From a virus, in IMG/VR virus record IMGVR_UViG_3300036791_000116, positions 1 to 44,588 of that record: DNA of 44,588 nucleotides, one strand, 5' to 3'. Positions 6,140 through 44,588 of this stretch are shown piece by piece (within the stretch, counting starts at the first letter, position 1; every line of letters starts with the position of its first letter). Both the position numbers and the translations under genes were made by a program. A model generated the notes under the pieces. That model ran no database searches. It saw only the letters and a program-made list of their open reading frames with translations, and was not told the DNA's origin.

Positions 6140-6145
6140 CAAGGT

Positions 6146-6161
6146 GCCTGCGAAGGCGGGC
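6146..6161 (+). repeat. GC hairpin element copy
   Basis: GCCTGCGAAGGCGGGC, between the PolA stop/motif and the SD of 6173. Confidence 0.7.
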
Positions 6162-6172
6162 AAGGAGAGTGC

Positions 6173-6658: not shown

Positions 6659-9600
6659 GGTTGTGGTCCTTCCTCCTCGTATGATTGGTCTGCCGGAAGA
6701 TTGTGTGGCGATAGGTCTTGTATGCTAATGTGCCTACCGTATTCGGGATGCCTTGCCGTCATTTCGTCCTCGACACGTGTAATTGCTGCGTTGATCTCCC
6801 TTGCTGCTAATTGTCTGTATCGCTCGTACCAACTCCTGACCGCGAACGGGTCTGTGTGGTCCACACCAGCGTTCTTGAGCACTTGCATTACGTCTGGTTT
6901 TTGTTCTATGCGTTGTTTCCAAGTAGCCATGTTGCCAAAGTCGATGTACCGCATGGACTGAATGGCTTTGGATGATGAATTGTATCGATCCCAAAGCGAT
7001 CTGAACCCCATGCCTCCTCTGTTGAGGCTGTCTTTGCTGAAGCGTTCGTCGAGCAGCTTCGCAAACTCTATGTATAGCGGATTGTTCGGCGGCTCCTGTC
7101 CAAGACCGGGTGAGTGCGGCGGCAGTGGCGGCCCTAATAGTTTACTTGCCTCCGCAAAGCCTGATGGGCTCGTCGGCTTCGCCTTGGTTATGAATTGCTC
7201 TCCGGCCATACCCCACTGGTGGTAGTAGTCGAGGAGCCCACGGATCGCCTGCTCCCTGTTATACATCTCGTTCACCATCCGCGTATTGCCAGATGGTGGC
7301 GCAAATGTATTGAAGGCGTTGTTTAGCAGCGGTGTGCGTTGTACCTGCAATTTGCCCATCTGCTTGAGGCCATTCTTCAACGCATTGGCGTACCCGGTTT
7401 CGTCCGAGTGCTCGTACGCTCCGTATCCAGCCAGCCACATATCCAGAATCGCAGGACTCACGGCCCTGGACAGGCTTTCATTTAGCTGGCTCATCACCTT
7501 GTTTGAGTCATACGGGTTCTGTTTGCGCATAAATGTGTCGCCGCCGATATCAGTAGCACCTACGTTCTGACCAAGCGCATTTCCCAACGGACTGCGAAAG
7601 AACGCCCCGAGGTTGCCCGGCGCTGATGCTCCTAGTGCCTCCACACCGGCCCCGAATAATGGCGGTGTTGGTGGCAGCACAACATCGAGGGCCATCGAGA
7701 GTGCCGCTTTGGCGTCTTGCGTCTTAGTCCATTGGGCCGCATTCGGGCTGTGATCACCGCTCCAGTAGTTGTCTCCGTACATGTGCGACATGACGGCTTC
7801 TATTGCCATCTTAGGAAAGACGCCTTCCTGAAACCACGGCATTTCTATACCTTCTGCCGCACGCCTTCCCGGCCATGCGATATACAAGTACATGCCGCGC
7901 CTGTACTCGTTTCTGCCGTACAACTGGTGACGTATGTACGGAGTACCTTCCGGGTCTGCACCCGCATACGTGTTCCATAAATAGGCAAGTACTGGCGGTG
8001 TTATATAGGCTGTGAGAGCCTTGAGAGCAAACCTTGTAGGGCTGCGCTTGGCAGCCTTTGGAAATGCCTTCAATCCCTGCATAGACATATTGTGCCACGG
8101 CAGTGTACGCAGCACATCGTGAGAGAATACCCATGCCTCAGCCGTCTTCGCACGAGCAACTAAGTCAGGAGACATCGGGTCCTTGGTCTGGTATCTAATG
8201 AAGTGACCTTCCTGGTTGTGCGCAGTGCCAGACACCAACGGATCGCCTACCAGCGCGTTTGAATCAGACACCAGCCTGTCGTATGTCGTATCTAATACTT
8301 GCTCTTCTGTTGCTGATGGTCCTAGCTCATTGCGTACGGCTGCCTTCACCCGCTTGAAGTTCTTCTGCACAGCCGCTGTCTGTGTTGAACTGTGTACGTC
8401 ATTTAGAAGATTCCGATAGGCGTGGCCCAGCGTAGCCAGTTGTCTGGTTCCGGGCCTTGTGCTCATATCCTGCACCATAGCTCTTAACCGGCTGTGCGGA
8501 TTGACCAAGCTGCTATCAGTACCGTACCGCATCAGTCCGCGAGAGTGTGTACCTCTAGCGCGTATATTCGCAACCGTGCTGCGCGCATACTGATTCGCTA
8601 GTATGCTTGCTATGTGGTTTGATGCGTTGTCGCCAAAGGCATGTCGCAACCATCCACCGCTGGTCGCATCGAGTGAGTACGATGCGTGTCTAGCTAGTCG
8701 TGCTAGTGACGATGATCCTACAGCATATCCCAACCCTGCAAGTCCAGGGGCCTTCCTTGCGTACCTCATTCCACCGGATGTCCCTTTTGCGATGCGATAG
8801 TTGCGAAGTGTATCTAATGGCGCAAAGTACACTTGCAGCAGTCCTGTCGTAGAAGCCACAAACAATCGTTTTGTTGCAGAAAGCACCTTAGCTACCGTAC
8901 CTGAACTGAAATGGTCTGGTCCGAATCTAATCAAATCCTTCATCGTAGGATTGTCTGCAACCCAATGCTGCTTCACGCCCCGGCGATACGATGTCACATG
9001 ACGATGCTGGAGCGAATCTGTAATATCTCCTGCTCTCTTGGGCGTGAACATGTGCCGTGCGCCTGGGGATTGCCGCAACGTATCAATAATTTTGCCGGTG
9101 GCCTGTTCATTTATGGTCTTCCGCGCTTGTGTGGTCACATACTGCATAGCTGATTTAATGGGATCAGGACGACGCAAAGGTTCACCCATTGCATTCCGCC
9201 CGTCGGGATACTTGATGTACTCTGCACGCTTGCTCCTACTAACCGGAACCTCATTCGGGTTGTGCGCATACTTGTTAAGCTCTTCGCTCTTCGTCATGAT
9301 CGAGTGTTCGCCCTCAGCCTGACCACGACGCGATTCCAGTATGTTCTCTTTGTAATGACCGCGCACGCGAACCCAATCTGGATGGGCCTGCTCCGTCTGG
9401 CGGATTTCCTGCAACAGATCAGCTTCTGTCTTGCCATGAATCATCGGTGGCCCAACCTGCGGATTTGCGTTTGCTGCGACTGTGCGCTTTCGTTGTATGT
9501 TCCGGACTTCATCAAGATCGCTGTTGGCATTTAAGTATTCACGAAAGCCCCTGTTCCTACTGAAGTTCGCATACGCCTCAATCTTCCGCAACGATACAGG

Positions 9601-12600
9601 CACTTCAAACCGGAAGTGCGGCGATATGGCACGCCCTTCTTCCACTGCGGCGTTCGCAAGGGATTGAGACTGCGCACCTGTATACTCACGTAGCGTATCT
9701 TGCAGATCGTCTAATACCGCAGGTGTCAGCCCTGTCTTTGCTGCATACGACGTGATCGGTCCTATACGGTCGTTAGCAAGATACGAGTAATCATGCGGCG
9801 TGAACTGCGCTTCCCAAGTTGCTCCGGCTGGCGGCGTAGGCATAGCAGACGGCGCGCTAGGCGGTGGTGCAGCCGGACCCTGCATGATGTTGGCGGGTGG
9901 CGACTGACGAGAGAACGGCGTTGGCGCAGCGACGGGTGCAGCGGCAGGTGCAGCAGGTGCTGTTTGACTCAAACCGGGCACCTGATTAGCCGGCACAACA
10001 TCCACGGGGATGGCCGTAGCGGCCGGCGGCGTGACGACGGGAGCCGCCAGCGCACTGGGCCCAACGGGACGCGTGATAGGTACGCCTCGTCGAACACCTT
10101 CGCCTGTCGGTGCTGGAGGCACAGGCGCCTCTGTGCGTTGCGCTATGTCAGCAGCTTGCACCGGCAAGGACGATTCTGGAACTGCGCTGGGAACCACTCC
10201 GCCTAGGGACTGTACGCGAGCAGCTTCCTCGGCAGCCTTTCGTGCAGCAACAGCGCGGGGATTAGATCCGAGCGCACGCGGATTCGTTCCGTGCAGACGC
10301 CTGTTTGCTGGCGGAAGCTGCGGAGCAGGCGGCAATGTGGCCGGAGTGGCAGCTTCGGGTTGCAGCGCCTTCAACTCTTCAATAGGGGTCTTGGCCTCCG
10401 GTAGCGCCTGCTGGGTCTTGCGCTCCTCAAGAAGTTGACCTACAGGGCTCAGTCCCTGAGTAGGCGCCGGTGGTGGCATAGGTTCAGCGGCAGCAGTACG
10501 CGGAAGGAACTGCCCTGTCGCCGGATCGCGCGGAGGTATAGGCATATCGGGATGCGAAACGAACTGACCAGTCTCGGCGTCTCTGGGGAATACCGGCGGC
10601 GTGGGCCTGTTGCCGGGCACACCAATATCAGATTCGGGTACGCCTTCGGGGGTTATGATCTTGCCACCAGCCACACCGAGTCCTCTAGGCGTCTTGAACG
10701 GAGTCTTACCAATCAGCATTTGCGCTGTGTTGTTGGCCCAATCCATCGCTTCCTGTTCGTTCTCTCCACCAATCATATGGCTTGTATCGCCTTGCCATGC
10801 CTTTTCTGCCATCTGGCCTGGGGTCATGGCCAAACCGTACATGCCTTGGATAGTACGCGATGGCAGACCAGCAACGCCGTAGCCCAGCGTCTTCCACCAG
10901 TCCCCTTGCACGTCGGGAGGCATCTTGCCGGACAGAATGGCGTCAGCGGCCCTGTTCGCAGCAGTATCTGGAATTGGTGGTGGTGGTATGTGCGACATAG
11001 ACTTCTGGTCTTCAATGCTCATGTGACTAAGTGGCTTTATCTCTCCGTTCGCGAACCGCTGCAAGAACTCTGGTGACTGCATAATGCCTTTCGTCATGCC
11101 GATGGTAGGGTCCATCTCTGCATCATAGTGCTGGATACGTTGCGGTTGTCCATCGGCACCGATCACTGTGTGAGTCAAACTAGGTAGCGCATCGGGTACC
11201 ATAGCGTCTGTCAGCCATGACGGGAACTGTGACTCGTCAACTGGCGTCGAGGCAGCCTGCAAATCTACAGGCGGTATCGGAGGCAGTGGCGGCATAGGCG
11301 CTTGTGGCTGCGTAGGATGCTGTAACTGCTTCGCGTAGTCACGCAATGCTACAATATCGGGGTCTTCCTGCGGAGGCCCATACTCCTCTGGCTGCTGGAT
11401 TTGCTCATCAGGCGCGCCGGCTACGTTCACACTGGCCATCTGATATGGTAGCTCAGGTGATGCGTCTGTCATCGTTCCGGTGTCGCGCTGCGCATACCGA
11501 ATTGGTGCATTGCTAGCGGCACGGACAGCAGGAGGCGCCATACCACCAGCCATTGCCGTGACCCACTTCCGGTCGGCATTCTCCTGAACGAATCGTTCGC
11601 CGGTACGGGGGTCGAATGCTACAGGCGCACCACCAGAATGCACACTGCCGCTCTCGTTGCCGGTGGCGTAGTTGGCAACGTTCGAGCCGCGCAGTGCATT
11701 CTGTATATAGCCATTGATTCGCCCTTGCTGGTCCGGTCCAAAGCCCTCGCCTAGCTTGTTAATGGTTGTTGATGGATAGTAGTGTACGTCTCGGATAGCC
11801 TGCTCCAGCGTCATGCCACGCGACGCAGCACGATTCATTACTGACTCGACATATGCCTGCTCGGCCCGTGGTCCCTGCCCGCCAACTTCCGCGTTGACCG
11901 AAGCCGCAAACAGCCGTCGCGTATTGGGGTCGGATAGTTCCTGCCCGAACCGCGACTGCCGTAGCTGCATCAAGTTAGTTGCAGAGGATGGAGCCGATGC
12001 ACCACCGTATGGCCCAGGAACGCTAGCACCGCCAGCACTAGCAACAGGAACACTATCGCTAGAACCGTCCGCCCCTGATCGCCCTCCAGCCATCTGGATA
12101 TGCACAGGGTCATTCTGGAATGCGCTACCCTTAAGGAACTCCAGCCCGTAACGACCCGCGTTCTGATGCAAGTAATCCAGCACCGGACCCCGTCGCACGT
12201 CTGCCGCCAGACCTTGTTCATGAAGGCTGCGTCCGGGCGGAGCGGCCAACCCGCCCTGGTTGTTTGGATTCGGTTGATACGTGGTTCCCCCGAAGGTGAC
12301 GGGGTGTCTGGTGTAGTCTGCATAGTATTGTGCCTGTCTTTCTGCTGGTCGATATAGATCGGATAGCGACGCCTTCTGCCCTGTGGCTGATTCTGCATCC
12401 TGTAGTGCTCGTGTCAGTCTCCCTGCAAAGGTTGGATTTAGGAACTGCGCGTTAAGGTCTGTGCCACGACTGAGTAGGTACTGATACGGTTGCACCGCTC
12501 CCGCAGGCGTGTCATTTGCAGCGACTTGCACTGGCCGCAACTGGTTCTGTATGATCTGGAACTGGTCTGATCCGTATGGAGGAGTATACGGCGGCGGTGT

Positions 12601-13122
12601 ACGCTGCGGGTATGCCGTCGGTGCCAGCCTCTGCAAATCGATAGCGCCGATCTCCCCCGGCTGTATTCCAGGCAATGCGCCCATGGGGGTCGCACCCGGC
12701 CGATAGAGAGGCAAGCCGTTTTGCATGTATCCAAAGGTCCGTGGTGCCCCTGGCGGTAACGCAGCGTCTTGCGCTTCCTCTACACTCAGCGGCGTTCCGG
12801 CTGCCCACTGCGCCTGCTGCATCGTGAACGGTAAGGCTAGGGCCTCCGGCAATTGTGCTCCCAGCGATGCCATCATTGGATACTGCGTCGGAGGCATGGC
12901 AGGCATGGGCGGTGGCGGCATCATGCCTATGGTGGCACCCTGCGGCCCTTCCTGTGGGGATGCCAGTGCAATGGCATCCTCCAATGGAATGTGCTCGTCC
13001 TGCGGCGGCGGGACGAATGGTGCTGCCGCAGGAGGAGGCGGAGGCAACTCCTGTTGCTTGTCCTCGTCCTGTGTGTCGTCTTGCGGCATCAGGCTTTCGA
13101 GTTCGTCAATGTCATCGGCCAT
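6655..13122 (-). CDS. giant virion-associated (ejection/internal) protein with an M15 (VanY-type) peptidoglycan peptidase domain, 2155 aa
   Basis: Uninterrupted 6.5-kb ORF in the structural arm. M15 signature: SDLYRPAERQ...GRSLHEQGLAADV...DPVHIQ (approx aa 225-345, nt ~12088-12450). Long Pro/Ala-rich linkers. ATG 13122 has no SD and lies 2 nt from a motif copy. Confidence 0.85.
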   Translation of the reverse strand: MADDIDELESLMPQDDTQDEDKQQELPPPPPAAAPFVPPPQDEHIPLEDAIALASPQEGPQGATIGMMPPPPMPAMPPTQYPMMASLGAQLPEALALPFTMQQAQWAAGTPLSVEEAQDAALPPGAPRTFGYMQNGLPLYRPGATPMGALPGIQPGEIGAIDLQRLAPTAYPQRTPPPYTPPYGSDQFQIIQNQLRPVQVAANDTPAGAVQPYQYLLSRGTDLNAQFLNPTFAGRLTRALQDAESATGQKASLSDLYRPAERQAQYYADYTRHPVTFGGTTYQPNPNNQGGLAAPPGRSLHEQGLAADVRRGPVLDYLHQNAGRYGLEFLKGSAFQNDPVHIQMAGGRSGADGSSDSVPVASAGGASVPGPYGGASAPSSATNLMQLRQSRFGQELSDPNTRRLFAASVNAEVGGQGPRAEQAYVESVMNRAASRGMTLEQAIRDVHYYPSTTINKLGEGFGPDQQGRINGYIQNALRGSNVANYATGNESGSVHSGGAPVAFDPRTGERFVQENADRKWVTAMAGGMAPPAVRAASNAPIRYAQRDTGTMTDASPELPYQMASVNVAGAPDEQIQQPEEYGPPQEDPDIVALRDYAKQLQHPTQPQAPMPPLPPIPPVDLQAASTPVDESQFPSWLTDAMVPDALPSLTHTVIGADGQPQRIQHYDAEMDPTIGMTKGIMQSPEFLQRFANGEIKPLSHMSIEDQKSMSHIPPPPIPDTAANRAADAILSGKMPPDVQGDWWKTLGYGVAGLPSRTIQGMYGLAMTPGQMAEKAWQGDTSHMIGGENEQEAMDWANNTAQMLIGKTPFKTPRGLGVAGGKIITPEGVPESDIGVPGNRPTPPVFPRDAETGQFVSHPDMPIPPRDPATGQFLPRTAAAEPMPPPAPTQGLSPVGQLLEERKTQQALPEAKTPIEELKALQPEAATPATLPPAPQLPPANRRLHGTNPRALGSNPRAVAARKAAEEAARVQSLGGVVPSAVPESSLPVQAADIAQRTEAPVPPAPTGEGVRRGVPITRPVGPSALAAPVVTPPAATAIPVDVVPANQVPGLSQTAPAAPAAAPVAAPTPFSRQSPPANIMQGPAAPPPSAPSAMPTPPAGATWEAQFTPHDYSYLANDRIGPITSYAAKTGLTPAVLDDLQDTLREYTGAQSQSLANAAVEEGRAISPHFRFEVPVSLRKIEAYANFSRNRGFREYLNANSDLDEVRNIQRKRTVAANANPQVGPPMIHGKTEADLLQEIRQTEQAHPDWVRVRGHYKENILESRRGQAEGEHSIMTKSEELNKYAHNPNEVPVSRSKRAEYIKYPDGRNAMGEPLRRPDPIKSAMQYVTTQARKTINEQATGKIIDTLRQSPGARHMFTPKRAGDITDSLQHRHVTSYRRGVKQHWVADNPTMKDLIRFGPDHFSSGTVAKVLSATKRLFVASTTGLLQVYFAPLDTLRNYRIAKGTSGGMRYARKAPGLAGLGYAVGSSSLARLARHASYSLDATSGGWLRHAFGDNASNHIASILANQYARSTVANIRARGTHSRGLMRYGTDSSLVNPHSRLRAMVQDMSTRPGTRQLATLGHAYRNLLNDVHSSTQTAAVQKNFKRVKAAVRNELGPSATEEQVLDTTYDRLVSDSNALVGDPLVSGTAHNQEGHFIRYQTKDPMSPDLVARAKTAEAWVFSHDVLRTLPWHNMSMQGLKAFPKAAKRSPTRFALKALTAYITPPVLAYLWNTYAGADPEGTPYIRHQLYGRNEYRRGMYLYIAWPGRRAAEGIEMPWFQEGVFPKMAIEAVMSHMYGDNYWSGDHSPNAAQWTKTQDAKAALSMALDVVLPPTPPLFGAGVEALGASAPGNLGAFFRSPLGNALGQNVGATDIGGDTFMRKQNPYDSNKVMSQLNESLSRAVSPAILDMWLAGYGAYEHSDETGYANALKNGLKQMGKLQVQRTPLLNNAFNTFAPPSGNTRMVNEMYNREQAIRGLLDYYHQWGMAGEQFITKAKPTSPSGFAEASKLLGPPLPPHSPGLGQEPPNNPLYIEFAKLLDERFSKDSLNRGGMGFRSLWDRYNSSSKAIQSMRYIDFGNMATWKQRIEQKPDVMQVLKNAGVDHTDPFAVRSWYERYRQLAAREINAAITRVEDEMTARHPEYGRHISIQDLSPHNLPADQSYEEEGPQP
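7501..7513. repeat. 13-bp dyad motif copy
   Basis: GTTTGAGTCATAC, inside the giant CDS (YDSNK). Confidence 0.85.
8257..8269. repeat. 13-bp dyad motif copy (centre A)
   Basis: GTTTGAATCAGAC, inside the giant CDS (SDSNA). Confidence 0.7.
9962..9974. repeat. 13-bp dyad motif copy
   Basis: GTTTGACTCAAAC, inside the giant CDS (GLSQT). Confidence 0.9.
11168..11180. repeat. 13-bp dyad motif copy
   Basis: GTGTGAGTCAAAC, inside the giant CDS (SLTHT). Confidence 0.9.
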
Positions 13123-13124
13123 CT

Positions 13125-13137
13125 GTTTGACTCACAC
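13125..13137. repeat. 13-bp dyad motif copy
   Basis: GTTTGACTCACAC, 2 nt from giant-gene ATG 13122. Confidence 0.9.
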
Positions 13138-16079: not shown

Positions 16080-16092
16080 GTTTGAGTCAAAC
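16080..16092. repeat. 13-bp dyad motif copy
   Basis: GTTTGAGTCAAAC, between the stop at 16108 and the SD/ATG at 16066. Confidence 0.9.
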
Positions 16093-19381: not shown

Positions 19382-19394
19382 GTTTGAGTCAAAC
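19382..19394. repeat. 13-bp dyad motif copy
   Basis: GTTTGAGTCAAAC, between the stop at 19401 and tail-fibre ATG 19367. Confidence 0.9.
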
Positions 19395-23777: not shown

Positions 23778-23790
23778 GTTTGAGTCAAAC
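23778..23790. repeat. 13-bp dyad motif copy
   Basis: GTTTGAGTCAAAC, between the capsid stop and the SD of 23765. A half-site CTTGACTCGC lies at 23797-23806. Confidence 0.9.
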
Positions 23791-32050: not shown

Positions 32051-32248
32051 CTACCTGCTGGACAAAACACGATTGGGGACAACGCCATTGGCTGTCCCTT
32101 GCATTATACGCAAGTCCAACGCGGGCTCTGATCTGCCTACGTTGGGTGGAACTGTCGCAGCTTTCGTCGTATTCACACTCAACTGCAACGCGATATCCGC
32201 AGAATTCTTCTTGTGGATCGCGTCACCTTCCGCGGTGCTTTGAGCCAC
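32051..32248 (-). CDS. hypothetical small protein (about 65 aa)
   Basis: Frame of listed ORF 32051..32314. Preferred GTG 32248 is preceded by AAGGAGG plus 8 nt. It overlaps the upstream gene by 26 nt. The start is uncertain. Confidence 0.35.
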   Translation of the reverse strand: MAQSTAEGDAIHKKNSADIALQLSVNTTKAATVPPNVGRSEPALDLRIMQGTANGVVPNRVLSSR

Positions 32249-32609
32249 GCCGATGCCCTCCTTCGTTCTCCGGCTCGACTTCATCCGGCTCCGGTTCCGG
32301 CCCCGGCGCATCATTCGGATACGCTTCCGAGCCGCCTACAGTCTGCGGCGTCGGCTGCTGCGACTGCTGCTGCGCCTGCGCCTCCATCTCCGCTGCCGTC
32401 GCTGCGGCCGCTCGCTTCATCGTAGCCTCGTTGATCGCTGCCTGCTCCTCGTTGTACTTGCGAACCTGGTCGTCACGAGCCAGATCGTAAGCCCTTCGAT
32501 CCGGTGTCGGGCCTGGATGCGGATCTGGAACCACTACCCCAGGCGGCAACGACTGATTCGGAGGCCCTTCTTCACCCTCACGAGGCTGCTCATTCTGCTC
32601 GTTCGTCAT
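32223..32609 (-). CDS. acidic/Gln-rich protein (128 aa), first gene of the leftward arm
   Basis: Preceded by the leader terminator, motif 32624-32636 and a GGGAGCGG SD. Confidence 0.6.
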   Translation of the reverse strand: MTNEQNEQPREGEEGPPNQSLPPGVVVPDPHPGPTPDRRAYDLARDDQVRKYNEEQAAINEATMKRAAAATAAEMEAQAQQQSQQPTPQTVGGSEAYPNDAPGPEPEPDEVEPENEGGHRRGSKHRGR

Positions 32610-32623: not shown

Positions 32624-32636
32624 GTTTGAGTCAAAC
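32624..32636. repeat. 13-bp dyad motif copy
   Basis: GTTTGAGTCAAAC, between the leader terminator and the first leftward gene. Confidence 0.9.
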
Positions 32637-32640
32637 AGCA

Positions 32641-32706
32641 ACAAAAAGAGGAGGCCGAGCAACCGCTGCAACGTACATGGCCACACGTACTCGGCACCCG
32701 GCCTCC
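32641..32706 (-). terminator. leader terminator/attenuator between PL and the first leftward gene
   Basis: On the minus strand, GGAGGCCG (32706-32699) pairs with CGGCCTCC (32657-32650). The stem encloses a foldable 41-nt insert and is followed by TCTTTTTGT (32649-32641). Confidence 0.55.
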
Positions 32707-32773
32707 AAGCTGAATGGGTCCTCGTCGTGCGGATGGGAGGAAGAATCACCGCAAAAGTCCATTCAACACACGT

Positions 32774-32802
32774 ATTATGGCACAAAAATTGCATGTTGTC
32801 AA
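32774..32802 (-). promoter_or_regulatory. leftward promoter PL for the structural arm (sigma70-like)
   Basis: Minus strand reads TTGACA (32802-32797), 17-nt spacer ACATGCAATTTTTGTGC, CATAAT (32779-32774). A-rich sequence lies upstream of the -35. Confidence 0.7.
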
Positions 32803-32860
32803 GCACTATTTTTCGCGGTGATAGCAACCTGATATCAAATCACTATCAATTTATGGTGCT

Positions 32861-32873
32861 GTTTGAGTCAAAC
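32861..32873. repeat. 13-bp dyad motif copy
   Basis: GTTTGAGTCAAAC, non-coding, 59 nt upstream of the PL -35. Confidence 0.9.
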
Positions 32874-33028
32874 GATGGACAATGTGGGGGGATAGTGTGG
32901 AGGACCGGATGTACTATATGGCTCATGGTGTATGTGTGCCGCTGCGCGGCCCCCACACCCCATTCGCCGACCGCCGCCGCCGCACAAACCGGACCGCTGA
33001 CCTGGGGGGTGCTTCGCAAAGACAACTA

Positions 33029-33056
33029 AGTGTACCACATTCACGCACCTTGTCAA
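33029..33056 (-). promoter_or_regulatory. second leftward promoter (extended -10 type)
   Basis: Minus strand reads TTGACA (33056-33051), 16-nt spacer, TGG-TACACT (-10 at 33034-33029). Operator 33077-33093 lies 20 nt upstream. Confidence 0.45.
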
Positions 33057-33076
33057 GCATTATTTTCACATTTACC

Positions 33077-33093
33077 TGCGACATATTGTCGCA
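33077..33093. promoter_or_regulatory. 17-bp palindromic operator, copy 1
   Basis: TGCGACA-TAT-TGTCGCA, perfect inverted arms. Confidence 0.75.
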
Positions 33094-33227
33094 CCCTACA
33101 CCCCACGCGCACACCCCACACGTGCCATCAGCGCGTAAGCGCGTGACTTGGCGGTTCACTTTTTGTTCTTCATTTTCGAGCCGTGAATGCGCCTTTGGCG
33201 AATGCCTCCATCCTCCCTCCGGGCTAG

Positions 33228-33297: not shown

Positions 33298-33310
33298 GTT
33301 TGACTCACAC
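33298..33310. repeat. 13-bp dyad motif copy
   Basis: GTTTGACTCACAC, non-coding control region. Confidence 0.9.
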
Positions 33311-33403
33311 ACGACCCCAGTGGCGGTATCACAACACCACAAATTGCACGATGTCCGGTTCCGCCGTCGTCCTACCTCCCCCCCATCCCCCCCTCAATGT
33401 CAA

Positions 33404-33420
33404 TGCGACATGTTGACGCA
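33404..33420. promoter_or_regulatory. operator-like site, imperfect copy
   Basis: TGCGACA-TGT-TGACGCA (one arm mismatch). Confidence 0.45.
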
Positions 33421-33454
33421 GTTTGGAAAACGGGGCGGAGGGTCGAGGGTCTAG

Positions 33455-33502
33455 CAACAACCAATCAACAACCAATCAACAACCAATCAACAACCAACAA
33501 TT
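33455..33502 (+). repeat. iteron array A: 11-bp unit CAACAACCAAT, about 4.3 copies
   Basis: Three exact tandem copies at 33455-33487, then CAACAACCAACAATT. Confidence 0.9.
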
Positions 33503-33551
33503 CAGAATGCAAGAAACCCCCGTAGAATGGGCACAAGTTGGTAGTGTGCGA

Positions 33552-33589
33552 TTTGTTTGATTGATGTTTGATTGGAGATTGGTTGTTGG
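33552..33589 (-). repeat. iteron-like array C (TTG-rich on the plus strand)
   Basis: TTTGTTTGATTGATGTTTGATTGGAGATTGGTTGTTGG: degenerate complements of the array A unit. Confidence 0.6.
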
Positions 33590-33670
33590 AGCCTCCCTTT
33601 GAAAGTGATTTTGCGGCGGGCAAATGTGCATTTTGGGGTCCGTGCCGGCGGGGCGCGTCGATTGTGGCAT

Positions 33671-33683
33671 GTGTGAGTCAAAC
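33671..33683. repeat. 13-bp dyad motif copy
   Basis: GTGTGAGTCAAAC, between iteron arrays C and B. Confidence 0.9.
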
Positions 33684-33704
33684 GTGTGGTTTGATAGATC
33701 GGCA

Positions 33705-33743
33705 TTTGTTGGTTGTTGGTTGATTGTTGGTTGATTGTTGATG
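33705..33743 (-). repeat. iteron array B, inverted relative to array A
   Basis: The minus strand reads CAACAATCAAC x2, then CAACAACCAAC, with an 11-bp period. Confidence 0.8.
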
Positions 33744-33845
33744 AAGTAGGTAGATGGGCGAAATGTCGGTTGCTTGGGAACATTCCGTGCCTTGCGGCGA
33801 GGTATGTTCCCAGCCCGGATGAATGATGGGACGCACGCCGCGTGA

Positions 33846-33904
33846 TCGATGGGGGCGATAGGCGATAAGCGATAGGTCGATAGGCGAGGGCGATGGGCGA
33901 TAGG
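33846..33904 (+). repeat. tandem array of about seven 7-8-bp CGATRGG units
   Basis: CGATGGGGG CGATAGG CGATAAG CGATAGGT CGATAGG CGAGGG CGATGGG CGATAGG. Confidence 0.8.
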
Positions 33905-33968
33905 CTCTAGAATGCGCTAGGAAGGCCGCTGGCGCGCTTTCGTGGGTCGGCCGCTAGGGTGGTAGCCT

Positions 33969-33981
33969 GTTTGACTCAAAC
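33969..33981. repeat. 13-bp dyad motif copy
   Basis: GTTTGACTCAAAC, 70 nt upstream of the P1 -35. Confidence 0.9.
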
Positions 33982-34050
33982 GCACGTGCGGCCATTTGTG
34001 GGCTTCCTAGAGGCTATTGCGGCAGGATGGACGCACATTGAAAAAATCGG

Positions 34051-34078
34051 TTGACCGACATGGGGAAGTCGCTATGTT
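34051..34078 (+). promoter_or_regulatory. rightward promoter P1 (sigma70-like)
   Basis: TTGACC (34051-34056), 16-nt spacer, TATGTT (34073-34078). A-tract TTGAAAAAATCGG immediately upstream. Confidence 0.5.
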
Positions 34079-34103
34079 GGCGATATCGAATCGATAGGGA
34101 GGT

Positions 34104-34127
34104 TGATTGCTGATGGATTGCTGATGG
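34104..34127 (+). repeat. 12-bp tandem duplication
   Basis: TGATTGCTGATGG / GGATTGCTGATGG. Confidence 0.7.
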
Positions 34128-34483
34128 GTCGCGGGGCCGCTTAGTCCCTCGCACGCGGGTCTTGCCAATGCCACCCGCTCGAAGCCGGAACCGAGAACCG
34201 GCAGGCAACCATAGTGGCGCCCAACGTTCCATTCGGGACGCCTGTTAGGGTAGTGTTACGCGTGATGGCGGACATGAGAGTAGCAGGCGCGGTGAACGTG
34301 ACTTAGCTCGAACCATCAGGGTAGGCAAAAGCTTGCGCGTTAGTGCGGCGCGCTAGTGAGTAGCCTGTAAGTCCTGGAACGGCATTGTTGTTAGCTGGAG
34401 GTTGTAGGGAAAATGAGAACGGCTCATTCGGGCTTAATTGCTCGCAATGGCCATGCAAAAGACAATCAATGGAGTGCAGAACT

Positions 34484-35527: not shown

Positions 35528-35551
35528 TAGCCTGTTGCATGTGTGGCAGGG

Positions 35552-35568
35552 TGCGACAATATGTCGCA
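35552..35568. promoter_or_regulatory. 17-bp palindromic operator, copy 2
   Basis: TGCGACA-ATA-TGTCGCA, abutting the -35 of P2. Confidence 0.75.
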
Positions 35569-35569
35569 G

Positions 35570-35598: not shown

Positions 35599-35640
35599 GG
35601 TAACAGCTAGCATTTCGCTAGCAATCTGGAGGAATAAGAC

Positions 35641-36711
35641 ATGGCGATTAAGTTCCGTTTGAGTCAAACAGTGAGTAAACCGGCCCTTGTCGCGGGTCGG
35701 AAGGCGGTTCCCGCAAGGGCTCCGGCTGCGGTGGTCAAGGCTCCGCCGAAGGGTAGGGCTGAGACTGCGGCGGAGAAGGCCGCAAACGAGACTACCGGCG
35801 GTCTGGTGCCGATTAAGAAGTCGGCCTTGTCGCTGGACGTTGGTCCTCGCGTCATCCACGCGCTCTTTGCTAACTCGGAGCGTTTGGACGCGATCACCGA
35901 GGAGATGCACATACTCAAAAAGAGTTATGCGCAGTTGTCGGAACTAACCGCTGCCATTACCAAGGCGGCGAAGGCCGATACCTCTATCGACCTTACTTCC
36001 GCGTTCTCTGGGGAGGTTAAGCAGATCGCCAAGTTGAATAACCAGCTTGGCATTGCGCTTGGCTTCCGCGTGGTGCGGAAGGGTGAGCCTGACAAGAGCG
36101 GCGTTGCCTATGACGCCGTGGTGACCAGTGAGAGCGTCGCTGATTGCTTCCCCATGCCTGGGGAGGACAAGAAGCTGCCCGCGATCCGGCGGAAAGAAAC
36201 CTTCCGCAGCAACTTCATGACACAACTTAAGAAGTGTGCCATGGCCGCGCACGCGATCATCGAGAACGATATCGATGCGCGGTTCGACACCAAGGCTGGC
36301 ACGTTGCTGATCTCAGGACCGGCCGTTCGTAAGCATTTCGGGCAAGAGCGAGTTTTGCTCGATGAGCGGAAAACGGTCGGGAGTGGCGACGCCAAGGTGG
36401 AGTTGAGCGAGAAGCCCAGCTTCACGGCGCTTGCCAATATCGGCGCGGCGTCGCAAGGTGTCGCGCCAGCGGTGGCTGGCTCCGGTGGAGCGCAGCACCG
36501 TGGCAACAACCCAGGAACCGTTGGCGGTACGCAAGCCGTCGCGGCAACGAAAGCTGCCGAGGTTACGGGCAAGGAGAGCATCGACGCGGCGATCCTGACT
36601 ATCTGCAAGGCGCTGCGGACGACGCTGGAAAAGGCCAAGGAACTGAGCAAGAACGCCATTGCGGCTCTTGAAGAGACAAAGAACGCAATTGACGTGCGGC
36701 TCACGAACTGA
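35641..36711 (+). CDS. early protein of unknown function (356 aa) with an Ala/Lys/Pro-rich N-terminal tail
   Basis: Driven by promoter TTGACA-17-CATAAT (35570-35598). GGAGG lies 8 nt upstream of the ATG. Motif copy at codons 6-10. Confidence 0.75.
   Translation: MAIKFRLSQTVSKPALVAGRKAVPARAPAAVVKAPPKGRAETAAEKAANETTGGLVPIKKSALSLDVGPRVIHALFANSERLDAITEEMHILKKSYAQLSELTAAITKAAKADTSIDLTSAFSGEVKQIAKLNNQLGIALGFRVVRKGEPDKSGVAYDAVVTSESVADCFPMPGEDKKLPAIRRKETFRSNFMTQLKKCAMAAHAIIENDIDARFDTKAGTLLISGPAVRKHFGQERVLLDERKTVGSGDAKVELSEKPSFTALANIGAASQGVAPAVAGSGGAQHRGNNPGTVGGTQAVAATKAAEVTGKESIDAAILTICKALRTTLEKAKELSKNAIAALEETKNAIDVRLTN
35657..35669. repeat. 13-bp dyad motif copy
   Basis: GTTTGAGTCAAAC, codons 6-10 of the 35641 gene (RLSQT). 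Confidence 0.9.
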
Positions 36712-36722
36712 TACAGAAAAGG

Positions 36723-36750
36723 CCCGGTGCGGTTTAGGAGCCGCACCGGG
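36723..36750 (+). terminator. GC-rich hairpin after 35641..36711
   Basis: CCCGGTGCGG (36723-36732) pairs with CCGCACCGGG (36741-36750). Only TGTTT follows. The 13-bp motif starts 4 nt downstream. Confidence 0.45.
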
Positions 36751-36753
36751 GCT

Positions 36754-36982: not shown

Positions 36983-36986
36983 CGTA

Positions 36987-37023
36987 GACCCAGGCGTGGA
37001 GCGAGCGCCTGGGTCTTTTTTTT
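36987..37023 (+). terminator. rho-independent terminator
   Basis: GACCCAGGCG (36987-36996) pairs with CGCCTGGGTC (37006-37015). Followed by T8 (37016-37023). Confidence 0.85.
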
Positions 37024-37099: not shown

Positions 37100-37119
37100 C
37101 AAGCTGGTCAGGGTCACGG
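37100..37119 (+). repeat. 20-bp direct repeat 3 of 3
   Basis: CAAGCTGGTCAGGGTCACGG (17/20 match to copies 1 and 2). Ends 1 nt before operator copy 3. Confidence 0.8.
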
Positions 37120-37120
37120 G

Positions 37121-37137
37121 TGCGACAATTTGTCGCA
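37121..37137. promoter_or_regulatory. 17-bp palindromic operator, copy 3
   Basis: TGCGACA-ATT-TGTCGCA, 10 nt upstream of the -35 of P3. Confidence 0.75.
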
Positions 37138-37147
37138 GGCGACCCTA

Positions 37148-37525: not shown

Positions 37526-37813
37526 ATGGCCAAGAGCTTTAAGGAGAAGTTTGATATGAGCGTTGAGAATGAAGACCACATTCGGTATCTGGCTGGCGTC
37601 CATACGACGATGACGGCGCTGGAGTTGACGATCGACGAGTACGGATTGCCGAAGGTGATCGATATGCTGACGGACATATGCCACGGTAAGGCAAATCATG
37701 TCCGTGAGTACGGGGCCGATCCAGAGGCGGCGAAGCATTGGGATAGCATTGCAGAGCGGCTCTCGAAGATGGGCGGTAGTTTGACTCAAACCGAAGCGGA
37801 GTGCAGCGAATGA
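37526..37813 (+). CDS. hypothetical protein (95 aa)
   Basis: ATG 37526 lies 4 nt after GGAGTGCA (37514-37521). Confidence 0.6.
   Translation: MAKSFKEKFDMSVENEDHIRYLAGVHTTMTALELTIDEYGLPKVIDMLTDICHGKANHVREYGADPEAAKHWDSIAERLSKMGGSLTQTEAECSE
37779..37791. repeat. 13-bp dyad motif copy
   Basis: GTTTGACTCAAAC, in the 3' end of the 37526 gene (SLTQT), upstream of the next SD. Confidence 0.9.
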
Positions 37814-38051: not shown

Positions 38052-38354
38052 GTGCGTCACGAGCGAGAAGCGTTTATCCTCTGCCCTGTATGTGAGGGCA
38101 GAGGAACTACCGTTGATCCGGCAATAGATGCGCACGGACTGACGCGAGCAGACTTCGCAGAAGACCCGGAGTTTGAGCGTGACTACTTTGGCGGCATGTA
38201 CGATATCGAGTGTCGGGCGTGCAAGGGTAAGCGTGTTGTGCCAAAGAGCTACCTGCGCGTGCTGGAGCGTCATGCCGAGGAGCGCGAGCAGGCAGCGCAA
38301 GAGAGCGGAGATTGGGAAGAGTATCGAGGCGCTAGGGACTGGCGATACGGGTAG
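38052..38354 (+). CDS. zinc-finger protein (about 100 aa, two CxxCxGxG-type motifs)
   Basis: Frame of ORF 37998..38354. GTG 38052 follows AGAGGAG plus 8 nt. CPVCEGRGT and CRACKGKRV motifs, as in DnaJ-type zinc fingers. Confidence 0.55.
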   Translation: MRHEREAFILCPVCEGRGTTVDPAIDAHGLTRADFAEDPEFERDYFGGMYDIECRACKGKRVVPKSYLRVLERHAEEREQAAQESGDWEEYRGARDWRYG

Positions 38355-38355: not shown

Positions 38356-38368
38356 GTGTGAGTCAAAT
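38356..38368. repeat. 13-bp dyad motif copy (1 mismatch)
   Basis: GTGTGAGTCAAAT, 1 nt after the stop at 38354. Confidence 0.8.
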
Positions 38369-38408
38369 GCATCCTCGCGAAAGCGGGGACCAGATAGGAG
38401 TGCAAAAC

Positions 38409-38750
38409 ATGGTCATATATCCATACACAGAGAAGGCTGCTCGTGAGAAGCAGCGCACAGACCGCGAGAGTGCAGTGAACCTCGCGGGTATCCAATTCGA
38501 GATGCTGGCAAGGAACTATGAGCGGCGGCATAGCGTGTCGCACGACTTGTTCCACCGGATTGTGCAGTCGATGCTCAAGATCGGAGCGCATCTCAAGCTG
38601 ACACAGGACCGCATGGAAAGCCTTGAGAAGAAACTGTTTGGGGCTGGCATGGGCGACGAGTTCACAGTGAATAGGGACGGAGATGGCAAGCGGATTTACA
38701 TCGAGGGCCACTTCGATATGGAAAAGCTGCGAAAGGAACTGCTATGGTGA
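38409..38750 (+). CDS. hypothetical protein (113 aa)
   Basis: Listed as 38358..38750. ATG 38409 lies 4 nt after GGAGTGCA (38397-38404). Confidence 0.6.
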   Translation: MVIYPYTEKAAREKQRTDRESAVNLAGIQFEMLARNYERRHSVSHDLFHRIVQSMLKIGAHLKLTQDRMESLEKKLFGAGMGDEFTVNRDGDGKRIYIEGHFDMEKLRKELLW

Positions 38751-39901: not shown

Positions 39902-40381
39902 ATGACTACGCGATCCAAGATGAAGGAAGGCGATGAAGGCGTACAGGCGGTACCGAGCACATTCCAAGGAATGATCGCCAAGGATATGGGCCTTGTGACA
40001 AACCAACTGCTCGGCAAGATCAAACAGGATACGGGCAGTGGTGCCAACGTGTCGCGTGTGTTGGCAGAGTTGTTCATGTGGAACTGGATCAGGAAGTTTG
40101 CCGATAGCAAGTACGAGAAGCTGCTTGTAGCGGCTAAGGAGGATGGCGTGCTCGGCGATCTGATAGGCCACGAGCCCGGCAGCTATGTTGCTGCGGAGAG
40201 TAGGCATTTCGTGGTGACAGTCAATATCAGCGAGCCGGTGCGCCGCTTCGATCCTGACGTGCTTGCAGGCTGGGCGCTGTCTGCGTACAAAATTCCGGTC
40301 ATCGTGCTGAAAGAGCAGATCGACAAGGCAAAGACTCCTACGCAGTCGCAGGTACGTGTCACGATCACGGAGCGACAGTAG
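39902..40381 (+). CDS. hypothetical protein (159 aa)
   Basis: AGGAGGAAG SD. Followed by a motif copy and two hairpins. Confidence 0.65.
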   Translation: MTTRSKMKEGDEGVQAVPSTFQGMIAKDMGLVTNQLLGKIKQDTGSGANVSRVLAELFMWNWIRKFADSKYEKLLVAAKEDGVLGDLIGHEPGSYVAAESRHFVVTVNISEPVRRFDPDVLAGWALSAYKIPVIVLKEQIDKAKTPTQSQVRVTITERQ

Positions 40382-40501: not shown

Positions 40502-40786
40502 ATGACAGACATTGATGTAGCGGTGAACGGCAAGCTGGCAGATACGGTGCCGGACTGCGGAGCACTCAAGTTGAGTGACCAGTTGAATGCGAAGATCGAC
40601 GAGGCGACTGTGCATATCGTCGGCGAGTTGGACCAGCTTAAGGAGGAGATCGAGCGTATCAAGTCCAAGCTGATAAAGGACACAGGGCTGGTCAAGGAGG
40701 CAGTTGCCACGCACTTTATGCTAGGTGCCGAGGCGATGGCGTTCCGGGCCAAGGTAGTGTCACGCTTGCAGGAGTTGGTAAAGTAA
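40502..40786 (+). CDS. coiled-coil hypothetical protein (94 aa)
   Basis: GGGAGATCGAG precedes the ATG. Confidence 0.6.
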   Translation: MTDIDVAVNGKLADTVPDCGALKLSDQLNAKIDEATVHIVGELDQLKEEIERIKSKLIKDTGLVKEAVATHFMLGAEAMAFRAKVVSRLQELVK

Positions 40787-41196
40787 TGCCGCTCATACTC
40801 CAGCCAACGTTCAGCGATAAGACACGCCAGCAGATCGAGGAGCATCTGCTGGTCGTAAGGGCGCGGCGCATGGCTGCGGTAGTGACGTACTATGCCGGCG
40901 TCAATGCAAAGAACATGCACTTGATTATGAAAGAGCAGCAACGGATTGCGCGCGAGTATGCGATGCTTGCGCGTGATCTCGCAAGGATGGACAAGCTGGA
41001 TGCGGCGATCGAAGCACGGCTGGGAGTGATTGTGCAGCACCAGCAGGAGTTGGACATATACCGAGGCAACATAGTGGAGATCGAGGATGATCGAGAAGAG
41101 AGCAGACAGACAAGTACGAGTAGAGAAGGAACCGGGGAACGCCCAAGGCCCAAGCCCAACGGAGCAGTCAGAGTGGGTCGTCCACCCGGAGCGTGA
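40786..41196 (+). CDS. hypothetical protein (136 aa)
   Basis: TAATG overlap with the upstream gene. The C-terminal ~35 aa overlap the next ORF. Confidence 0.55.
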   Translation: MPLILQPTFSDKTRQQIEEHLLVVRARRMAAVVTYYAGVNAKNMHLIMKEQQRIAREYAMLARDLARMDKLDAAIEARLGVIVQHQQELDIYRGNIVEIEDDREESRQTSTSREGTGERPRPKPNGAVRVGRPPGA

Positions 41197-42329: not shown

Positions 42330-42877
42330 AGAAGGTCAGTGGGTATCTGGCTGATGACGGTACCTTCTTCGATGCCGAGGCCGACGTGGAGTTGTATGAG
42401 GCGCTCCATGCGTTGGAGTTCTCGGTCAAGAATATAGGTGCCGATCCAGCCAAGTTCATGATTGTGGTAGAAGGTTGTCAAGATCAACTCATGAGGTATC
42501 TGAATGCCCAAAGCAAATTCAAGAGAAGCGAAGCCCTTGGGCCTGTCCCGAGGGCGACCGGCAGCAGCAATCCACAACCTGCTGTCGATCACACCAACGA
42601 CCGTAGCGCAGAAGGACATGCACCCGTACTCGAACAGTCGGCTGACGAACCTGAACATGTGCCCGACATACGGGGTAGTATCGGCGCAGAAGCAGTACCA
42701 GACGGGCGCACGATCGATGGCACTGGAAGCGGGAGCACTGATGCACGAAGTGTTCGCGGCGCTGCGTATATGGCAACTGTATCGAGTGCAGCGATTACAG
42801 CTGCACGCAGAGGTAGTAGCGACCCGTTTGTTCGGCAGGCCGAAGCAAGGGCAAAACTATCACGGTCAGACGTTTGA
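42326..42877 (+). CDS. hypothetical protein; the 3' two-thirds overlap the nuclease gene out of frame
   Basis: ATGA overlap with the upstream gene. The first ~60 aa look protein-like. The remaining ~120 aa are low-complexity and overprint 42504..43661. The stop is the TGA inside motif 42872-42884. Confidence 0.4.
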   Translation: MKKVSGYLADDGTFFDAEADVELYEALHALEFSVKNIGADPAKFMIVVEGCQDQLMRYLNAQSKFKRSEALGPVPRATGSSNPQPAVDHTNDRSAEGHAPVLEQSADEPEHVPDIRGSIGAEAVPDGRTIDGTGSGSTDARSVRGAAYMATVSSAAITAARRGSSDPFVRQAEARAKLSRSDV

Positions 42878-43661
42878 CTCAAACAGATGGTCTAAGTGCT
42901 GGGCGAAGAGCATGGATCAGAAGGACCCACGCGAGTCGATGATGGTGCTCGCGTTCGAGATACTACGCAGTAGCGGCTGGGAGGATAGTCCTGACGACAA
43001 TATCAGGACGGTCGCCAATATGGAGTTGTCGTCGATCGCGTACATCGACGAGATACTTCCGAGGATGGCCAATTTGCCGCTCTATGTAGAAGACGAAAAT
43101 GATCCGCATTGCATCGTGGGGATCGAGAACGTGTTCGACGTAGTGCTGACGTATGACGACAGTAAGCAATTCCGGTTCATCGGGACGCTCGATGGGCTGA
43201 CGCTCAACAAGGCGAAGAAACATGCCGTGCTGGAGGATAACAAGACGGCTGCGAGATTGGATGAAGGCTGGAAGGCATCGTTCCTGCTGTCCAATCAGGT
43301 GACGGGGTATCTGGCATGTGCCGCATCGGTATATGGGTTTGACATATACAATGCCAAGATCATCGGGCTCAAGATCAAGCCTTCGAGTAGGGGCGAGGAT
43401 GTTTGGCCGATCATGGTAAGCAGGACCGGCGAGCAGTTTGCGCGATGGGCATTCTGGTTCAGGCACACGGCCGAGATGTTCGAGAAATATAAGGACAGTT
43501 TCGAGTATGCGCCAAGGTATACGCATTCGTGCAATCGGTACTTTCGGCCATGCTCGTTGCTGAGTTTCTGCTGCGACACGTATGAGGGGAGGGTCGAGCA
43601 ATGGGAGGAAATGGTACCAGCGCGTTCGAGTCCGTCAGAGTTGGCAATCGGCGAAGATTAA
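42504..43661 (+). CDS. PD-(D/E)XK exonuclease, Cas4/RecB-like with Fe-S cysteines
   Basis: N-terminal NLNMCP Cys. GTLDGL...LEDNKT (D...ExK). QVTGY. C-terminal CNRYFRPCSLLSFCC. GAGG lies 8 nt before ATG 42504, with an in-frame TGA immediately upstream. Confidence 0.8.
   Translation: MPKANSREAKPLGLSRGRPAAAIHNLLSITPTTVAQKDMHPYSNSRLTNLNMCPTYGVVSAQKQYQTGARSMALEAGALMHEVFAALRIWQLYRVQRLQLHAEVVATRLFGRPKQGQNYHGQTFDSNRWSKCWAKSMDQKDPRESMMVLAFEILRSSGWEDSPDDNIRTVANMELSSIAYIDEILPRMANLPLYVEDENDPHCIVGIENVFDVVLTYDDSKQFRFIGTLDGLTLNKAKKHAVLEDNKTAARLDEGWKASFLLSNQVTGYLACAASVYGFDIYNAKIIGLKIKPSSRGEDVWPIMVSRTGEQFARWAFWFRHTAEMFEKYKDSFEYAPRYTHSCNRYFRPCSLLSFCCDTYEGRVEQWEEMVPARSSPSELAIGED
42872..42884. repeat. 13-bp dyad motif copy
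   Basis: GTTTGACTCAAAC, inside the nuclease CDS (FDSN). Supplies the TGA stop of overlapping ORF 42326..42877. Confidence 0.9.
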
Positions 43662-43977: not shown

Positions 43978-44588
43978 ATGGCAAGCGCCCCATTTAAGAT
44001 TGGGCCGGTGACGGTGCAGGCCGGACGGGAGATATCGAAGCGCATGAGCGTGCTTATATGGGGCGCTGCCGCCTGTGGCAAAACCTCATTTGCAGCCACG
44101 GCACCGGGAATTAAGCTGTGGCTGTCATTCGGAGATCAGGAGCATGTGTCGGTAGCGCATAGGCCGGACGTGTGTGTTGCTGATCTGTCGAAGCTATCAT
44201 CGGAGGAGTTGTTCAAGCACGCATTGAGTGACAACCCATTCGGTATGGATCAAATACTTGCGCAGCGCACGGATATACAGACGGTGGTATGCGACTCGGC
44301 AACAGCGTTGGTGTATCAGGCATTGCAGCGATCGGTAGAGAAGGGCGTTGGCGCGGGTAGGCGTGGGTTTGTGCCAACGATCGAGGAGCCTGGGCAGGCG
44401 GCGTACGGCGCTCGCAATGCGTTGATGCTCAAGGTGTTGACAGGGTTGTTAAGGGTCACGGCGAAGCATGGTGTGCATCTGATCGTCACCGCGCATGAAG
44501 CTGATCCGGTCATGGAGATACGTGACGGCAAGGAGGTAGTGAGTCACATAGGCGTTATGCTTGGTGGCCAGCTTGTCAACAATGTGAC
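43978..44588 (+). CDS. RecA-fold AAA ATPase (Sak4/AAA_24-like), 5' part; continues at base 1 through the circular junction
   Basis: Not in the ORF track because there is no stop before the window end. ATG 43978 follows AAGAGGAAG. Hand translation: MASAPFKIGPVTV...; Walker A WGAAACGKTS; Walker B TVVCDSAT. Confidence 0.8.
   Translation, partial: MASAPFKIGPVTVQAGREISKRMSVLIWGAAACGKTSFAATAPGIKLWLSFGDQEHVSVAHRPDVCVADLSKLSSEELFKHALSDNPFGMDQILAQRTDIQTVVCDSATALVYQALQRSVEKGVGAGRRGFVPTIEEPGQAAYGARNALMLKVLTGLLRVTAKHGVHLIVTAHEADPVMEIRDGKEVVSHIGVMLGGQLVNNV
44462..44588 (+). repeat. terminal overlap (identical to 1-127)
   Basis: Exact 127-nt identity. Signature of a circular assembly. Confidence 0.95.

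Follow-up and report, generated by a model that had tools for sequence, protein, structure and literature searches.

In phage lambda, the PR′-qut-tR′ region has a strong, constitutive-looking promoter directly before a single long late operon, and a short leader with a GC hairpin and a U-run precedes the first gene; the short RNA of this region, 6S RNA, is 194 nucleotides (nt) long. The same layout is found in the IMG/VR virus record IMGVR_UViG_3300036791_000116, of which positions 1 to 44,588 were analysed (44,588 nt; hereafter the window). There, on the minus strand, the promoter P32802 is followed by a leader RNA of two helices, P1 and P2, and a U-run, all ahead of about 26 kb of virion genes; this is a conserved cis-leader RNA of the structural operon, outside the known families. 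A first-pass annotation of the window had read the locus as lambda PR′-like. The layout and its retention in relatives bear this out, whereas conservation of the U-run, an antiterminator family and a pause element do not.

Other leaders with which the locus can be compared act as RNA. HK022 put is a cis-acting RNA antiterminator of a lambdoid phage, found at the start of long operons; like the leader described here it is a nascent RNA of two stem-loops just past the promoter, conserved in structure and not in sequence, but it suppresses termination and is no terminator (PMC9378689). Cis-acting RNA antiterminators are also known from Gram-positive mobile elements, namely conAn2 of pLS20 (PMC8191782) and canT of Tn916 (PMC11658703); they share with the present case a structured leader RNA behind a strong promoter and a very long operon of a mobile element, are 300–450 nt in size and serve operons with many terminators, and conAn also needs the protein ConAn1. 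In Bacillus, 5′-terminal stem-loops are established mRNA stabilisers, the aprE leader being an example listed in the references of PMC3997798; these stabilisers (aprE leader, ermC, SP82) are single hairpins or ribosome-stall sites, which have in common with P1 a helix at the very 5′ end and upstream of a strong Shine-Dalgarno (SD) sequence, whereas a second long hairpin and, in some lineages, a U-run are added here.

Promoter and leader RNA

The near-consensus promoter marked by the first-pass annotation at 32802-32774 is present, with 11 of 12 matches and an additional TG (coordinates of all features are collected in Table 1). Four sites with at least 10 of 12 matches and a TG occur across the 44.6-kb window (33056 and 32802 on the minus strand, 35570 and 37148 on the plus strand), against 0.19 expected from a first-order Markov simulation. 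Apart from read-through from P33056, the transcripts of which would continue into P32802 and the leader, P32802 is the sole host-type promoter ahead of the 26-kb structural arm, and no further host-type promoters were found within that arm. The other three strong promoters share a 20-bp palindromic element which is missing only at P32802; this points to a different mode of control. Every lineage of the clade introduced below (L001-L030) has two to three TGATAG/TGATAT/CTATCA boxes upstream of the leader-linked promoter, and AAAAATA tracts, phased with a repeat spacing of ~21–22 bp, are found there in all lineages; together, boxes and tracts suggest that P32802 has an UP-element, curved DNA or a regulator site of its own. 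The 226 nt that follow P33056 (32803-33028) are G-rich, highly structured and contain no open reading frame (ORF), which leaves P32802 with no gene directly upstream.

Transcription is predicted to start at G32767 and a terminated RNA to extend to ~32642, which gives ~126 nt where a leader of ~125 nt had been annotated. The whole leader (32767-32641) folds with −52.2 kcal/mol (z = −3.2), its opposite strand with −42.1 kcal/mol (z = −1.9); thus, the sense strand folds better. P1 takes up the first 59 nt of the leader, with the 5′-terminal nucleotide paired in. P2 begins 2 nt later, 61 nt past the predicted start, in agreement with the GC stem proposed about 60 nt downstream; its base consists of GGAGGCCGGG (32706-32697) paired with CUCGGCCUCC (32659-32650), its apex of 37 nt is itself folded, and the stable fold that had been made a check of the proposal is obtained (−31.1 kcal/mol, z = −3.3). 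P1 folds independently, and the 5′ arm of P2 is predicted to be largely free in the nascent RNA. No competing antiterminator helix was found in the leader, and blocking the 3′ arm of P2 costs the fold 14–27 kcal/mol. There is, therefore, no riboswitch-like alternative fold, and any regulated read-through would need a trans-acting factor.

The U-run lies where it had been annotated, directly 3′ of P2, and so do the 13-mer, the SD sequence and the start codon of the first structural gene that come after it. A GC-rich stem that abuts a U-run is the arrangement of an intrinsic terminator; P2 with its U-run is the best such candidate on the minus strand, and in its GC content and T-run the base of P2 plus the U-run resembles the canonical terminators that the phage has at 971-1005 and 36986-37016. 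P2 is not a compact hairpin, and the excess of its apex over the loop limit of the consensus terminator scan (3–8 nt) is the sole reason why that scan missed it; a permissive scan was noisy and was used only for ranking hairpin energies.

No Rfam 15 family matches in the window at gathering score and none relevant at E ≤ 10 was obtained for the leader or its L030 homologue; tRNA or tmRNA genes were not found by ARAGORN. An nhaA-I match at 33056-33096 reaches 16.7 bits where 37 are needed and corresponds to the putative palindromic operator, not to the leader. A leader peptide (AUG at +6, 43 codons) was rejected: the AUG is AUA in L011, and the L001 frame has, on translation by hand, 33 unrelated codons. 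Also dropped was a kissing or pseudoknot interaction of the CU-rich P1 loop with the P2 apex (GGAAG:CUUCC), which is possible in L011 and L030 and inconsistent elsewhere. The likeness of the U-run to boxA (CUCUUUUUG versus GCUCUUUAACAA) comes to 6 of 12 matches in our own comparison and is absent from lineages lacking the U-run; such a reading is not supported.

Conservation and covariation among relatives

Relatives were collected by TerL searches of IMG/VR and JGI metagenomes. About ten diverged soil phages from IMG/VR form a close clade with the window (contigs of ~44–46 kb, TerL 77–97% identical); a wider set is 46–67% identical. The order of A-tract, TTGACA-17-TGn-TAnAAT, leader, GC hairpin, 13-mer and SD-ATG is constant in the close clade, where P32802 is kept with 9–12 of 12 matches. 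Separate minimum free energy folds give the P1-P2 architecture in 10 of 11 lineages, the exception being L021. In every lineage the first G of P1 lies 5–6 nt from the −10, and P2 begins 0–2 nt after P1, which encloses a variable hairpin of 37–152 nt, often with a C/U-rich loop (CCUCCC, UUCCCUC, CUUCC or UCCUUUCC, as read from the folds).

Aligning whole leaders with plain MAFFT (A1) put the helices out of register, and from this alignment RNAalifold retrieved P2 only in part; it was replaced by A3, in which the helix arms of 11 lineages, picked by their pairing, were anchored by hand and aligned without gaps. In A3, 97% of the cells are paired and 15 of the 19 pairs show changes on both sides. 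Six of the nine pairs of P1 contribute to this number and nine of the ten in the base of P2, in which all cells (100%) are paired. In 500 shuffles the observed values were never attained, and partners slid along the alignment were 29–59% paired. Fifteen cells are G-U or U-G on the sense strand; such wobbles argue for RNA from the minus strand as the functional entity, over DNA. A covariance model derived from six leaders (A5, R1) gave a single match in each genome, located every time where the structural arm begins; the rest of the window had no match, and neither did relatives with TerL identities of 67% or less. Pattern scans for further leader variants (AAAATARTGCTTGACA and a P2 arm pattern) lacked specificity and brought in no further lineage. 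Within the P2 apex, four lineages retain the block GUCGGCGGrAG. The leader of a sister clade (L065/L072, TerL 60%) is a different one; it also forms a GC hairpin, which may or may not be followed by a U-rich tail.

The U-run does not follow the helices. Whereas the P2 stem is present in all 11 lineages, the U-run is good in four (at least 6 T in 8; the window, L030 and the group of L004, L005, L010 and L029), marginal in one (5 of 8; L001/L026) and absent in six (4 of 8 or fewer; L002, L011, L027, L028, L016 and L018/L021). Selection thus preserves the RNA fold and not termination, which would be a facultative property of P2. In the L004 group the U-run is retained despite rearranged flanking sequence, so it seems to be selected where present.

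The genome and its other signals

The first 127 bases of the window recur as its last (1-127 = 44462-44588); this is an overlap from assembly, and the genome, of ~44,461 bp, is circular or terminally redundant. Its leftward arm encodes two unassigned proteins, TerS, TerL, an SU10-like portal, the major capsid protein and further genes. INPHARED holds no cultured-phage DNA match and no prophage relative was found in GTDB genomes; the nearest cultured TerL, that of Paenibacillus phage API480, is 26% identical, and the capsid protein is 23–24% identical to those of phages Mx8, Mx9 and a Bradyrhizobium phage.

Table 1. Positions of the promoter, the leader and other features in the window
Feature	Position	Strand	Description
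Promoter P32802	32802-32774	minus	TTGACA-17-(TG)CATAAT, 11/12 match
−35 TTGACA	32802-32797	minus	promoter P32802
Extended −10 TGn	32782-32780	minus	17-nt spacer of P32802 ends in TGTGC (−16 TRTG)
−10 CATAAT	32779-32774	minus	promoter P32802
Upstream region	32803..32860	minus	A-tract GCGAAAAATAGTGC adjoining the −35; three TGATAG/TGATAT/CTATCA boxes
P1 5′ strand GUUGAAUGG	32759..32767	minus	begins at predicted start G32767, 7 nt past the −10
P1 interior	32718..32758	minus	variable hairpin (GCGG/CCGC); loop with C/U-rich, anti-SD-like CUUCCUCCC, 32743-32735
P1 3′ strand CCAUUCAGC	32709..32717	minus	pairs with P1 5′ strand
P2 hairpin	32706..32650	minus	57 nt, GC-rich; 10-bp base and folded apical part
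U-run UCUUUUUGU	32649-32641	minus	directly 3′ of P2; 7 T in best 8-nt window
13-mer copy GTTTGACTCAAAC	32636-32624	minus	palindrome GTTTGAsTCAAAC
SD GGGAG	32620-32616	minus	first structural-arm gene
ATG	32609-32607	minus	first structural-arm gene
First leftward-arm gene	32223..32609	minus	128 amino acids, acidic, proline-rich
Leftward structural arm	32609 down to ~6434	minus	~26 kb of virion genes
2155-amino-acid virion-arm protein	6655-13122	minus	VanY-like peptidase domain, residues 237-312
Promoter P33056	33029..33095	minus	TTGACA-16-TACACT; 20-bp element GGTGCGACAATATGTCGCAG upstream, 33095-33076
20-bp element GGTGCGACAATATGTCGCAG	33076-33095	minus	7-3-7 palindrome just upstream of P33056
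20-bp element GGTGCGACAATATGTCGCAG	35550-35569	plus	just upstream of P35570
20-bp element GGTGCGACAATATGTCGCAG	37119-37138	plus	just upstream of P37148
Promoter P37148	37148-37176	plus	perfect 12/12; ~105-nt leader, GC hairpin abutting 13-mer at 37247
Terminator	971-1005	plus	canonical, 13-mer in loop
Terminator	36986-37016	plus	strong, ~130 nt upstream of P37148
Further terminator-related entry	36720-36753	plus	
Example 13-mers	6127-6139, 13125-13137, 16080-16092, 19382-19394		
Example 13-mers	23778-23790, 32624-32636, 37779-37791, 42872-42884		
CAACAACCAAT arrays	33455-33497		inverted copies 33554-33574, 33706-33742
GGCGATA repeats	33854-33905		seven copies
GATTGCTGATG repeats	34105-34127		two copies
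Rightward arm	~34484 onward, then 1-6442	plus	includes RecD-like helicase and UDG-PolA fusion
UDG-PolA fusion	3661-6132	plus	family-A DNA polymerase, N-terminal uracil-DNA-glycosylase-family (UDG) domain
DUF4326 protein	6173-6442	plus	at the point where both arms converge

The factor binding the 13-mer between leader and first gene had been named as one candidate for the antitermination factor. Against this, ~38 such palindromes are present in the window, where 0.7 are expected, most of them in the gap from a stop codon to the SD sequence that follows, on both arms and in either orientation, and a few inside long ORFs. As a genome-wide element the 13-mer is not a signal specific to the leader. 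Some lineages have versions of their own (ATTTGACTCAAAC in L016/L032, GCTGTGTGAATCACACAAC in L065/L072 and TGTACGACTCGCACA in L082-85); it may be the site of a dimeric protein, form a small hairpin in RNA or mark a recombination boundary. The 20-bp element is, judging from its position at three strong promoters, probably the operator of a putative early-promoter regulator; in the L018 lineage it is also found in front of the leader-linked promoter. The terminator at 36986-37016, with P37148 after it, splits the early region into at least two units.

The slot that corresponds to 32803-33028 is occupied in some relatives, in L004, L005 and L029 by a gene for a zinc-ribbon protein (CxxC...CCxxC, 76–84 amino acids) and in L001 by one for an unrelated protein of 78 amino acids; the zinc-ribbon gene, which lies beside the promoter, was considered and rejected, having no homologue in the window. 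Between the arms lies ~1.1 kb of non-coding DNA (33300-34450), which with its direct and inverted repeats looks like an iteron-type replication origin. The motif GGAGTGCW has 10 sites in the window, where 3.9 are expected, eight of them on the plus strand between 34471 and 38404; those checked lie a few bases 5′ of start codons, and the late genes have AGGAG-type SD sequences directly after the 13-mer. GGAGTGCW may thus be a distinct translation signal of early genes.

Function of the leader

We hold, with moderate confidence, that promoter and 5′ leader of the late operon act as a promoter-proximal valve and that the leader has a further role at the RNA level. RNA polymerase of the host, carrying the primary sigma factor, would initiate constitutively near G32767, at the near-consensus extended −10 promoter, and P1 would cap the 5′ end, where protection is conceivable by analogy with the Bacillus stem-loop stabilisers. 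P2 and the U-run would stop most transcripts and leave a stable RNA of ~126 nt with a helix at each end; a fraction, leaky or factor-assisted, would be read through into the 13-mer, the SD sequence and the 26-kb virion operon. The leader would in this way throttle a promoter of constitutively high strength, termination being a layer added in about half of the lineages, this phage included. That P2 terminates measurably here is likely. Since the P1-P2 fold is conserved at a fixed distance from the promoter and the U-run is not, we infer the further RNA-level role, for which 5′-end protection of the long mRNA and a binding or processing site are candidates.

Several points weigh against this reading. 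Six lineages, among them some whose TerL is 90–91% identical, have no U-run, which means that termination cannot be the conserved function of P2, and the structured 37-nt apex is atypical of intrinsic terminators and could lower efficiency; start site, 3′ end and terminator efficiency are predictions. The P2 arms of L016, L018 and L028 are not homologous in sequence, so that hairpin replacement accounts for part of the covariation. In the distant relatives L082-85 and L089 only 30–60 nt without hairpins separate the promoter from the first gene, so the leader is dispensable for this genome plan. Finally, a host of Gram-positive type is suggested solely by the −16 TRTG and the strong SD sequences.

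The locus presents itself as a plausible control valve and not as a lambda-style switch. In such a switch an early protein would modify RNA polymerase for reading through P2, with the ~126-nt RNA as by-product; this is quite unlikely to be the case here, even though the layout is that of PR′-tR′, with a strong, activator-independent promoter, an intrinsic terminator less than 200 nt from the start and before the first late gene, and a long late operon of 26 kb that has no other host-type promoter. The lack at P32802 of the operator common to the other strong promoters and the need for a trans-acting factor, given that no antiterminator fold is built in, would also fit. However, scans of the ~40 ORFs with Pfam and PHROGs turned up neither a Q, N or sigma family nor any other antiterminator, and three conserved early proteins have no relatives of solved structure; early ORFs that are retained together with the leader lie at 35641-36711, 38358-38750, 39902-40381 and 40786-41196. 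No gene abuts P32802, and those found there in relatives differ and are mutually unrelated. At +1 to +9 (GUUGAAUGG) there is no −10-like pause element, none of the hexamers combining A at position 2 with T at position 6; this stretch covaries as the 5′ strand of P1, a conserved 5′-terminal helix in which the leader differs from lambda, as it does in having no sequence similarity and in a U-run that varies among close relatives and is lost in half of the lineages. The zinc-finger protein encoded at 38052-38354, put forward in the first-pass annotation as the factor, is not conserved alongside the leader: it occurs only in the two nearest relatives, L001/L026, is missing where the leader and a good U-run persist, among them the L004 group, and from L002, though its neighbour genes are present, and has only a weak CxxCxGxG pattern of the DnaJ/anti-TRAP type. 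Membership in the Q system is thus not supported, and the existence of a dedicated read-through factor of any kind is doubtful. In another reading, the P1-P2 RNA itself would be the antitermination or factor-loading element, comparable to HK022 put, conAn2, canT or nut, and would act in cis so that the transcribing polymerase becomes processive over the 26-kb operon. What is found agrees with these precedents, which likewise stand at the start of long operons: a structured RNA with two covarying helices, in single copy, at a fixed place after the promoter of a very long operon, with or without the U-run, and with the apical GUCGGCGGrAG of four lineages as a possible binding site. We nevertheless regard this as unlikely, as no strong intrinsic terminators that would have to be overcome are predicted inside the late operon (the weak matches on the minus strand between 6434 and 32600 equal the shuffle expectation in number), the element is itself terminator-like in this phage, and it is much smaller than conAn2 and canT; moreover, it shows no sequence similarity to put, no detected homology to conAn2 or canT and no similarity to an Rfam family. 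That it represents a new class of cis-acting RNA, which binds or reprograms polymerase or loads a small factor via the P2 apex and so sets processivity or timing of the operon, is improbable as well; if true, it would be a compact put/nut-like device of ~100 nt in soil phages remote from any cultured one, with the U-run as a lineage-specific refinement.

The leader may also be nothing else than a module for stability or processing in the 5′-untranslated region, with an incidental U-run and little termination. The 5′ helix would then act against exonuclease or pyrophosphohydrolase and the long duplex would be an RNase III-type site; P1 takes in the first transcribed nucleotide in all lineages, both helices are kept in the six lineages lacking the U-run, and stem-loop stabilisers of this kind are on record for Bacillus (PMC3997798). 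We think it rather unlikely, for the U-run retained by the L004 group suggests selection, and the base of P2 with UCUUUUUGU matches the canonical terminators of the phage. Very unlikely is a trans-acting small RNA of ~126 nt which merely shares the promoter and pairs with SD regions, or serves as a decoy, through its CCUCC-type loop. The very strong promoter and two terminal helices do predict an abundant, stable RNA, and CUUCCUCCC is complementary to SD-like GGAGGAA, for instance that of the first early gene (35625-35635); but the loop sequence is only loosely conserved, a CU-rich loop of whatever kind would be expected to show complementarity to SD sequences by chance, and lineages without the U-run would release no discrete RNA unless it is processed. 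An analogy to pRNA of phi29 was considered as well. Both are phage RNAs (~120–170 nt) made from a strong promoter, with a closing helix of 5′/3′ type, internal hairpins and a terminator behind them, and both come from a phage whose packaging module is podovirus-like. Protein-primed replication of the phi29 type uses a family-B polymerase; the phage described here has a family-A polymerase, TerS and a full-length TerL, and its leader folds show no consistent loop-loop complementarity, and the analogy was abandoned. That the inverted repeats act as DNA, being a protein site or a packaging or replication signal, is suggested by the near-perfect repeat that the P2 arms form close to the terminase genes, and is extremely improbable: the 15 sense-strand wobbles would turn into A-C mismatches on the opposite strand, the fold of the sense strand is the better one of the two strands, the helices change in sequence and keep their pairing, unlike a protein operator, and origin-like iterons are located elsewhere (33450-33905).

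Only a few models, among them lambda Q, HK022 put and the phi29 p4 protein, show how virion genes are delayed or dosed in phages that depend on host polymerase alone. The present case adds an uncultured clade in which a consensus promoter and a covarying leader RNA of no known family precede the structural genes. Whatever the mechanism, promoter and leader together comprise ~130 nt and make a compact, testable part, for which the variants with and without U-run are built-in controls. Termination at the hairpin, with read-through on cue, would make the locus a case of PR′-like control that arose independently and works without a Q protein; if the RNA acts on polymerase, it would be a small new member of the short list of RNA antiterminators.

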